From the IMG/VR virus record IMGVR_UViG_2703718825_000008: 11,157 bases of DNA. The stretch is one strand, 5' to 3'. The position numbers were made by a program, and so were the translations under genes. This document shows, one piece after another, positions 439-514 of this stretch. Source of the DNA: a virus (taxonomy: Duplodnaviria > Heunggongvirae > Uroviricota > Caudoviricetes). The notes below the pieces were generated by a model. It saw nothing but the letters and a program-made list of their open reading frames with translations, was not told where the DNA came from and did no database searches. Position 1 is the stretch's first letter, and the number at the start of each line of letters is the position of its first letter.

Positions 439-514
439 TGGACCACCACCGGGGACTCGAACCTCGCACACTCAACTTAAAGGGTTGACGCTCTTTCCTG
501 ATGGCTAGTGGCGG
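439..514 (-). tRNA. tRNA-like gene with atypical anticodon loop (apparent UUU with C33); identity uncertain, possibly degenerate
   Basis: Reverse complement gives a 76-nt cloverleaf ending in CCA: acceptor CCGCCAC/GTGGTGG with one G-U pair, T-loop TTCGAGT with one T-stem mismatch, perfect anticodon stem TCAAC/GTTGA. The loop is CCTTTAA, so position 33 is C, not U. The D-stem (GCCA/GAGC) has two mismatches. It occupies the argN position between the other two tRNAs. Confidence 0.55.

Follow-up and report, generated by a model that had tools for sequence, protein, structure and literature searches.

Part of an Escherichia coli lambdoid prophage, the 11,157-nucleotide (nt) stretch analysed here (IMG/VR record IMGVR_UViG_2703718825_000008; the window) carries a short tRNA cluster downstream of the gene for the antiterminator Q. 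Read along the minus strand, the region runs from DUF968, RusA and Q (787-1482) through a hairpin (697-726) to the cluster, a terminator-like hairpin and the start of a TerB-family pseudogene. ARAGORN places three tRNAs in the cluster, with anticodons CAT, TTT and TCT in that order, and the Rfam tRNA model finds the outer two only (Table 1). Our subject is the middle gene, at 439-514, and the position that it occupies in this and related clusters is called slot X.

ARAGORN delimits the gene precisely as a tRNA with anticodon ttt. The minus strand reads CCGCCAC UA GCCA UCAGGAAA GAGC G UCAAC CCUUUAA GUUGA in its 5' part, followed by GUGUG CGAGG UUCGAGU CCCCG GUGGUGG U CCA. An initial annotation of this DNA had described a tRNA with loop CCUUUAA, C33 and a UUU anticodon, and with a perfect 5-base-pair (bp) anticodon stem, two mismatches in the D stem and one in the T stem; the ARAGORN call and the sequence reading agree on the former, and the stem features are all seen in the sequence. 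The loop is C32 C33 U34 U35 U36 A37 A38 on the stem UCAAC/GUUGA, so that a lysine-type anticodon is present and the U-turn base U33 is replaced by C, as it is in all UUU-type relatives. Within the D stem, G10:C25 and C11:G24 pair and C12·A23 and A13·G22 are mismatched, leaving two Watson-Crick pairs where a cloverleaf has 3-4 bp. Comparison with intact relatives indicates that the two mismatches reflect a separate lesion, a 1-nt deletion (GCUC to GC-C). The other stems comprise an acceptor of 7 bp including a G·U, the anticodon stem of 5 bp and a T stem with four of five pairs, its single mismatch being A51·C63 (window 464/452). The T loop UUCGAGU, the D-loop G18G19 and the encoded CCA are all canonical. 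Acceptor, T loop and CCA had been called canonical at the outset, which is right for the last two and only in part for the acceptor, where the G3·U70 wobble was overlooked; the corresponding pair is G3:C70 in intact relatives and A3:U70 in the main Arg(UCU) sister.

The identity elements of slot X are mixed. Its discriminator is U73, not the A73 expected for tRNA-Lys. The determinants for arginyl-tRNA synthetase (ArgRS) are C35 and A20; slot X has A at D-loop position 20 and U, not C, at position 35. With respect to tRNA-Ala, G3·U70 is present, and the context of A73 and G2:C71 is replaced by U73 and C2:G71. Its identity is 84% to the argN-type tRNA-Arg(UCG) found in Ile-Arg-Arg clusters and 97% to genes annotated tRNA-Lys in RefSeq. 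To judge from these comparisons, the gene is a genuine tRNA-gene homologue, and a chance match is ruled out.

Table 1. Features of the tRNA cluster in the window
Feature	Position	Strand	Remarks
Slot X, degenerate tRNA-like gene	439-514	-	76 nt, apparent anticodon UUU; ARAGORN and sequence reading
Anticodon loop CCUUUAA	477-483	-	C33 = 482, U34-U36 = 481-479
D-stem 5' strand GCCA	502-505	-	U12 of GCUC deleted relative to intact relatives; two Watson-Crick pairs left
U70 (C70U)	445	-	G3·U70 wobble with base 512; from alignments
tRNA-Ile2, intact, anticodon CAU, ileZ-type	516-591	-	Rfam 72.5 bits; RefSeq tRNA-Ile; 1 nt upstream of slot X
tRNA-Arg(UCU), intact, argO-type	351-425	-	Rfam 68.1 bits; RefSeq tRNA-Arg; 13 nt downstream of slot X
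Sigma-70-like promoter match TTGCAA-17-TATTAT	601-629	-	Consensus match only; ends 10 nt before the Ile tRNA
Terminator-like hairpin and T run	318-335	-	Consensus match only; directly 3' of the Arg(UCU) tRNA

Covariance scores and folding of the alleles

Scored with the Rfam tRNA model (RF00005; gathering threshold 29 bits), the window allele gives no match at E<=10 in the region 300-650, and its best match within the clan is to tRNA-Sec, at 15.7 bits. By contrast, an intact relative sharing C33 and the UUU anticodon (the C33-UUU lineage) scores 44.4 bits, canonical Arg(UCU) sisters score 56.4 and 57.8 bits and the neighbouring tRNAs 57-74 bits. Alleles of the lineage that carry U8C likewise return no match to the model at E<=10. 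RefSeq annotation follows the same division: of the rows sampled, all 14 for intact alleles bear the label tRNA-Lys, none of the 10 identical genomes has an annotation at the window allele, and U8C alleles are also left out. Single-sequence minimum-free-energy folding yielded no cloverleaf even for the intact allele and is hence uninformative, and we used instead the gap between the cloverleaf and the best alternative fold (nearest-neighbour energies). The cloverleaf lies ~8 kcal/mol above the best alternative for the window allele and 7.0 kcal/mol above it for a U8C allele; the intact UUU allele has a gap of 2.7 and the Arg sister one of 1.3.

The initial annotation had left the choice between a decaying copy and a tRNA with unusual decoding. 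The missing Rfam match, the absence from RefSeq and the D-stem deletion agree with the former; the latter finds no support. A pseudogene-level covariance score, named beforehand as the outcome that would speak against an unusual tRNA, is what the Rfam model gives for the window copy.

Probable descent from tRNA-Arg(UCU) and relaxed constraint

To see what else occupies slot X, we scanned for any 70-95 nt between the 3' end of the Ile gene and the 5' start of a Thr gene, a search unbiased with respect to the form of X, which returned 122 loci; a second scan used an A26 variant of the slot-X scaffold. Together the two scans give 69 sister loci, mostly Ile-Arg(UCU)-Thr-Gly clusters, in which slot X carries the loop CUUCUAA or UUUCUAA with anticodon UCU. 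These sisters share the anticodon stem UCAAC/GUUGA; their T stem, CGAGG/CCUCG, is fully paired and their discriminator is G or A. The nearest of them depart from the UUU form at positions 26, 32, 33, 35 and 63 and in one compensated pair, and nowhere else. The presence of a canonical UCU loop in the same slot implies that the odd loop is the Arg(UCU) loop altered by two transitions, U33C and C35U; the T-stem mismatch appears to be a third, U63C. C35 is the main ArgRS determinant, and its change to U removes that determinant and creates a 'lysine' anticodon. Neither intermediate, U33-UUU or C33-UCU, was seen in the slot scans.

The loop itself is uniform across the lineage. With the seven loop bases unconstrained, a scan of IMG/VR found 124 loci, of which 121 read CCTTTAA, two TCTTTAA and one ACTTTAA, with C33 invariant; C33 is present in all ~150 UUU-type IMG/VR loci, and a targeted IMG/VR search for U33 on this stem (NTTTTAA) returned none. 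A private mutation as the origin of the loop is ruled out, as all relatives have the same loop and no U33 version occurs on this stem. The suggestion that the loop might be a one-off mutation of a standard loop is therefore wrong as to a private event and right as to derivation from a standard C-U-UCU-A-A loop; similarly, CCUUUAA and C33 are kept throughout the C33-UUU lineage, whereas argN has CUUCGAA. A relationship to host tRNA-Lys is also rejected, although no direct alignment to a lysT gene was made: the closest homologues belong to the prophage Arg tRNAs and not to host lysT-type genes, and the host tRNA-Lys site (PMC12409363) is unlike slot X in its anticodon stem and at positions 39-41. 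The gene had been noted to sit where a second arginine tRNA would be expected, which fits its homology to prophage Arg tRNAs, the nearest canonical sisters in the same slot being UCU.

Taken together, these alignments identify the gene at 439-514 as what appears to be the window allele of a C33-UUU lineage derived from a prophage tRNA-Arg(UCU). Its nearest canonical relative, in the Ile-Arg(UCU)-Thr-Gly clusters, occupies the same slot and has the stem UCAAC/GUUGA, the D loop and the T arm in common with it; unlike the window copy, that sister has U33, C35, a fully paired T stem and G or A as discriminator, and is annotated tRNA-Arg. The RefSeq 'tRNA-Lys' genes of Ile-Lys-Thr-Gly clusters, with the same C33-UUU loop and 97% identity, belong to the same lineage but keep a 4-bp D stem and G3:C70 and pass the covariance threshold, whereas the window allele does neither. 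These 97%-identical relatives lie in Ile-X-Thr-Gly clusters of other prophages, also downstream of Q. Among 5,426 complete E. coli genomes, the exact window allele occurs in 222 records, alleles at 95-99% identity in ~535 and argN-type Arg(UCG) at 80-90% identity in 188. Carriers of the window allele include E. coli E2865 and O55:H7 CB9615, and Ecol_545 is a strain with the intact allele. All 222 window-allele records match the whole 401-bp cluster at >=99%, and in IMG/VR the U12-deletion allele accounts for 18 of the ~150 loci. A scan of species-representative genomes for the scaffold found it in E. coli, Shigella and one metagenome-assembled genome only, a range that offers no phylogenetic depth for a covariation test.

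We then compared the pattern of change in the lineage with that in its canonical relatives. The canonical-loop Arg group comprises 10 haplotypes from 70 loci, and 9 of the 10 are free of stem mismatches and of changes at the conserved bases checked (U8, A14, G18, G19, A21, U33, G53, U54, U55, C56, A58 and C61). Differences within this group consist of compensated pairs at 3:70 (A:U/G:C) and 4:69 (U:A/C:G), with the remainder in loops, and compensated swaps at 7:66, 27:43 and 30:40 separate the UCU from the UCG types; such swaps on clean stems are the signature of working tRNAs. The middle Arg genes of Ile-Arg-Arg-type clusters are not all clean: one annotated argN-type Arg-UCG (L004:3206-3282) combines a C11·A24 mismatch in the D stem with a T-stem G·U.

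The C33-UUU group (21 full-length and 3 indel haplotypes, ~150 loci) behaves differently. C33 is found in every copy and A51·C63 in 19 of 21 full-length haplotypes, a sub-lineage of ~30 loci adds U8C and two new U·G wobbles, and other lesions include G18A, mismatches of the C·A, C·U or G·G kind, a 7-nt deletion of the 3' anticodon stem and the U12 deletion. Not one compensated double change occurs among the ~150 loci. In a MAFFT alignment of loci that have the Ile, Thr and Gly genes in common, nucleotide diversity is 0.026 for X, while Ile, Thr and Gly themselves show 0.003, 0.011 and 0.013, respectively. Counted as mutational events per site, however, X exceeds Ile and Gly only about twofold and is similar to Thr, so that the rate alone is weak evidence and the argument is carried by the type and frequency of the lesions. 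The substitution pattern is that of a lineage under relaxed constraint.

The pseudogene reading and its alternatives

We favour the reading that a tRNA pseudogene occupies 439-514 and that, among the common alleles of a lineage begun as a working prophage tRNA-Arg(UCU), this one is the most decayed; we put the probability of this reading at about 0.78. The window allele fails as a functional tRNA on its model score, its D stem and its lack of U33, and as a tRNA-Lys on its discriminator and its descent; the copy would be an ordinary tRNA pseudogene inside a prophage tRNA array. For annotation, this means that the tRNA-Lys label given by ARAGORN-type finders and, for the intact alleles, by RefSeq covers a decaying tRNA-Arg(UCU) derivative, and that the window allele is due a pseudogene flag.

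In the history that we propose, the lambdoid cluster downstream of Q would have been built of Ile2(CAU), slot X and, last, Thr(UGU)-Gly(UCC) or Arg(UCU), and slot X would have held a canonical tRNA-Arg(UCU), kin of the argN-type tRNA-Arg(UCG). In one lineage, U33C and C35U would have cost the gene its U-turn base and its main ArgRS determinant and left the apparent UUU anticodon, with U63C afterwards producing the T-stem mismatch. Under the relaxed constraint that followed, sub-lineages would have gained U8C, G18A, stem mismatches and deletions; the window allele would have lost U12, which reduces its D stem to two good pairs, and gained C70U, and the 3' part of its cluster would have been exchanged for argO by a recombination event within the 3' end of X. 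Slot X would still be co-transcribed with its intact neighbours, and its acceptor and T arm should allow RNase P and 3' processing to free them; with this half of the molecule intact, hindrance of RNase P release of the flanking tRNAs is improbable. The product of slot X itself is probably misfolded, poorly modified and unused in decoding, and AGA decoding in the cluster would be supplied by the downstream Arg(UCU) gene. Decay of slot X also fits its residence in a defective prophage.

Several observations weigh against this reading. C33 need not kill an elongator tRNA, and the same fact favours a functional alternative: yeast tRNA-Leu(GAG) has, like X, a C33 in a 7-nt loop, there natural and of minimal effect, although that tRNA is otherwise canonical, shown to work, eukaryotic and unrelated in sequence to X (PMC13492127). 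C33 and UUU are constant in every copy seen; at the current low divergence ~2 loop changes are expected, and 2 are seen, both at position 32. The stem changes at high frequency are mostly C-to-U opposite G, which retain a wobble pair, and ARAGORN still accepts the window copy as a tRNA. Finally, the C33-UUU family is present in ~757 of the 5,426 complete E. coli genomes (~14%) and its canonical sister in 16, a ratio of ~47 to 1. Such abundance is odd for a dead gene, unless it hitchhikes with the module.

The strongest alternative takes the C33-UUU family, and possibly the window allele, for a working phage tRNA-Lys, made by an alloacceptor switch from Arg-UCU to Lys-UUU and refractory to the anticodon nucleases PrrC and PARIS AriB. 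Such a tRNA would stand in for host tRNA-Lys once anticodon nucleases have destroyed it. Host tRNA-Lys(UUU) is a target both of PrrC, which cuts 3' of U33 (PMC2610378), and of PARIS AriB, which needs U36AAUC|A41, cuts between 40 and 41 and is blocked by a change at position 39 (PMC12409363). Slot X would place C33 at the PrrC cut site, and its foreign anticodon stem removes the AriB recognition sequence, reading U36AAGUU41 where host tRNA-Lys has U36AAUCA41 (PMC12409363). A literature search for the effect of C33 on PrrC found no paper. The partner gene in intact clusters, tRNA-Thr(UGU), is a PARIS target as well, and it is destroyed by P2 Old in P2-lambda interference, from which phage Thr tRNAs rescue (PMC12445682). 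A second, independent UUU anticodon (G35U) has arisen in the neighbouring thrU-derived gene at at least 7 loci, the family outnumbers its Arg sister 47-fold, and its intact alleles exceed the Rfam and tRNAscan thresholds. A precedent exists in the PARIS-resistant tRNA-Lys(UUU) of phage T5, which like X is phage-borne, has UUU and differs from the host AriB site at 39-41 (PMC12409363); the T5 tRNA, however, is canonical and experimentally functional, whereas X has C33, U73, stem defects and a probable origin from an Arg tRNA.

Several features of the lineage and its cluster speak against such a switch. The AriB-resistant stem is inherited from the Arg ancestor and is not an adaptation, and the Thr and Gly genes of the cluster are exact copies of host thrU and glyT rather than resistant variants; that these two genes are nuclease-resistant anti-defence variants is ruled out, as they match K-12 thrU and glyT base for base. 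The lineage has U73 in place of the A73 of tRNA-Lys. Tamura and colleagues are said to have included discriminator A73 in the tRNA-Lys identity set in 1992. Moreover, the T stem is mismatched, more than half of the copies are also severely damaged elsewhere (U8C or the U12 deletion, for example), compensated pair changes are absent from the lineage, and the window allele itself fails the covariance model. We therefore regard the alloacceptor switch with nuclease evasion as unlikely. That the C33-UUU family is functional in any way is scarcely less doubtful, and function of the window allele is less probable than that. Were the switch real, the window allele would have decayed from such a tRNA or would still work, with a D stem of 3 bp and a bulge. 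The wider interest nonetheless lies in the C33 'tRNA-Lys' family and not in the window copy: if the intact alleles are functional, they would be the first nuclease-evading tRNA of a temperate phage and a rare bacterial elongator tRNA with C33, and if the switch is true, temperate lambdoid phages carry their own uncleavable tRNA-Lys. A literature search returned no paper on the C33-UUU family.

Slot X might instead be kept for a role other than decoding, either as a spacer for RNase P and RNase E processing or as a decoy for a tRNA-targeting enzyme. The tight spacers (1 nt to Ile, 13 nt to Arg) and the intact acceptor/T-arm minihelix, the core of an RNase P substrate, would suit such a role, and slot X was never empty in the 122-locus scan, although the required gap of 70-95 nt precluded the detection of empty slots. 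Specific support for a decoy is lacking, however, and the lesion pattern is consistent with neutrality, so that we consider a retained non-decoding role quite improbable.

A further alternative, peculiar to the window allele, is that G3·U70, which no other allele shows, leads to charging with alanine and makes the gene a mistranslating tRNA that inserts Ala at the Lys codons AAA and AAG. Hou and Schimmel, and McClain and Foss, reportedly found in 1988 that G3:U70 is the major determinant for alanyl-tRNA synthetase (AlaRS) and can transplant alanine identity, and the acceptor stem, T arm and CCA of this allele are intact. Against this, the D stem is broken and C33 is present, U73 with C1:G72 is a poor AlaRS context, C70U is an expected neutral transition, G·U being the natural stepping stone from G:C to A:U, both of which occur in relatives, and the allele sits in a decaying prophage; alanine charging is thus very improbable. 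Even more remote is a shift of the U-turn to U34, with the loop presenting UUA and reading the UAA stop codon.

The cluster and its prophage

The closest known system is the ileZ-argN-argO cluster of Shiga-toxin (Stx) and other lambdoid phages, for example 933W and VT2-Sakai, on which a literature search found no relevant paper. As there, the window cluster lies downstream of Q and upstream of the lysis region, begins with Ile2 (CAU), ends with Arg UCU and has a middle gene 84% identical to argN, followed by the same argN-argO spacer TTATCGGTATTCT. Unlike argN (loop CUUCGAA, anticodon UCG), the middle gene of the window has CCUUUAA, a 1-nt D-stem deletion, A51·C63 and G3·U70, and whereas argN is annotated tRNA-Arg, the window gene fails the tRNA covariance model. 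The cluster is the ileZ-argN-argO arrangement with its middle gene replaced by a decayed slot-X allele. This Ile-X-ArgO order with the argN-argO spacer points to recombination of two cluster types within the shared 3' end of X and argN. Two loci (L020 and L073) carry the deletion allele with C70 in an Ile-X-Thr context with a tyrU remnant, which indicates that the U12 deletion predates the present arrangement.

The same two loci retain the thrU-tyrU spacer of the host, TCAAGTCC, and ~35 nt from the 5' end of tyrU, and in Ile-X-Thr-Gly clusters (L002:3264-3418 and ~100 related loci) Thr(UGU) and Gly(UCC) equal host thrU and glyT base for base (compared with L224, K-12 4175388-4175747). The exact copies and the tyrU remnant together indicate that a portion of the host thrU-tyrU-glyT-thrT operon was taken up by the phage module. 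The acquired thrU copy has the change G35U at at least 7 loci (L033:3483-3555, L047, L059, L063 and L086 among them), two of which have Arg(UCU) in slot X; it is then a canonical UUU tRNA with loop CUUUUAA that scores 74.2 bits in Rfam, so that a 'lysine' anticodon has arisen in this cluster a second time, independently.

ARAGORN labels the first tRNA of the window cluster Met and RefSeq labels it tRNA-Ile (a lysidine-type Ile2), a discrepancy of naming only. The promoter-like sequence ahead of it is present in the consensus of 114 related loci and is possibly the cluster's own promoter. A second sigma-70-like match on the minus strand (775-803) overlaps the 3' end of the Q open reading frame and may be PR'. 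The hairpin at 697-726, between the end of Q and the cluster, is a perfect 13-bp palindrome, AACAAAACCCGC-TTGT-GCGGGTTTTGTT; it resembles a terminator in either orientation and is plausibly tR', the late terminator overridden by Q.

Over its 401 bp, the cluster has counterparts of 100% identity in E. coli E2865 and in many Shiga-toxin-producing and enteropathogenic E. coli strains, and in genomes identical over this length RefSeq annotates tRNA-Ile and tRNA-Arg with nothing between. The E2865 element is a defective prophage near ompW that has no terminase, head or tail genes and whose TerB, DUF1627, fimbrial, integrase and nleA genes are frameshifted or contain stops. In the window, the start of the TerB-family gene occupies 1-169 on the minus strand, and the identical E2865 sequence is annotated as a pseudogene with an internal stop. 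Elsewhere the window carries features of a Qin-type immunity region: a sok antitoxin RNA beside the hokD toxin gene (3875-4024, minus strand; Rfam, 103.9 bits) and the small RNA DicF near dicB (10939-10990, plus strand; Rfam, 76.7 bits). The virulence gene paa, which encodes an AcfC-family adhesin, lies in the prophage early region at ~4213-4971 on the minus strand (mapped from L159:7660-8418), flanked by the frameshifted fimbrial and DUF1627 genes, and beyond the window the element continues with nleA, nleH, nleF, nleG and espM1.
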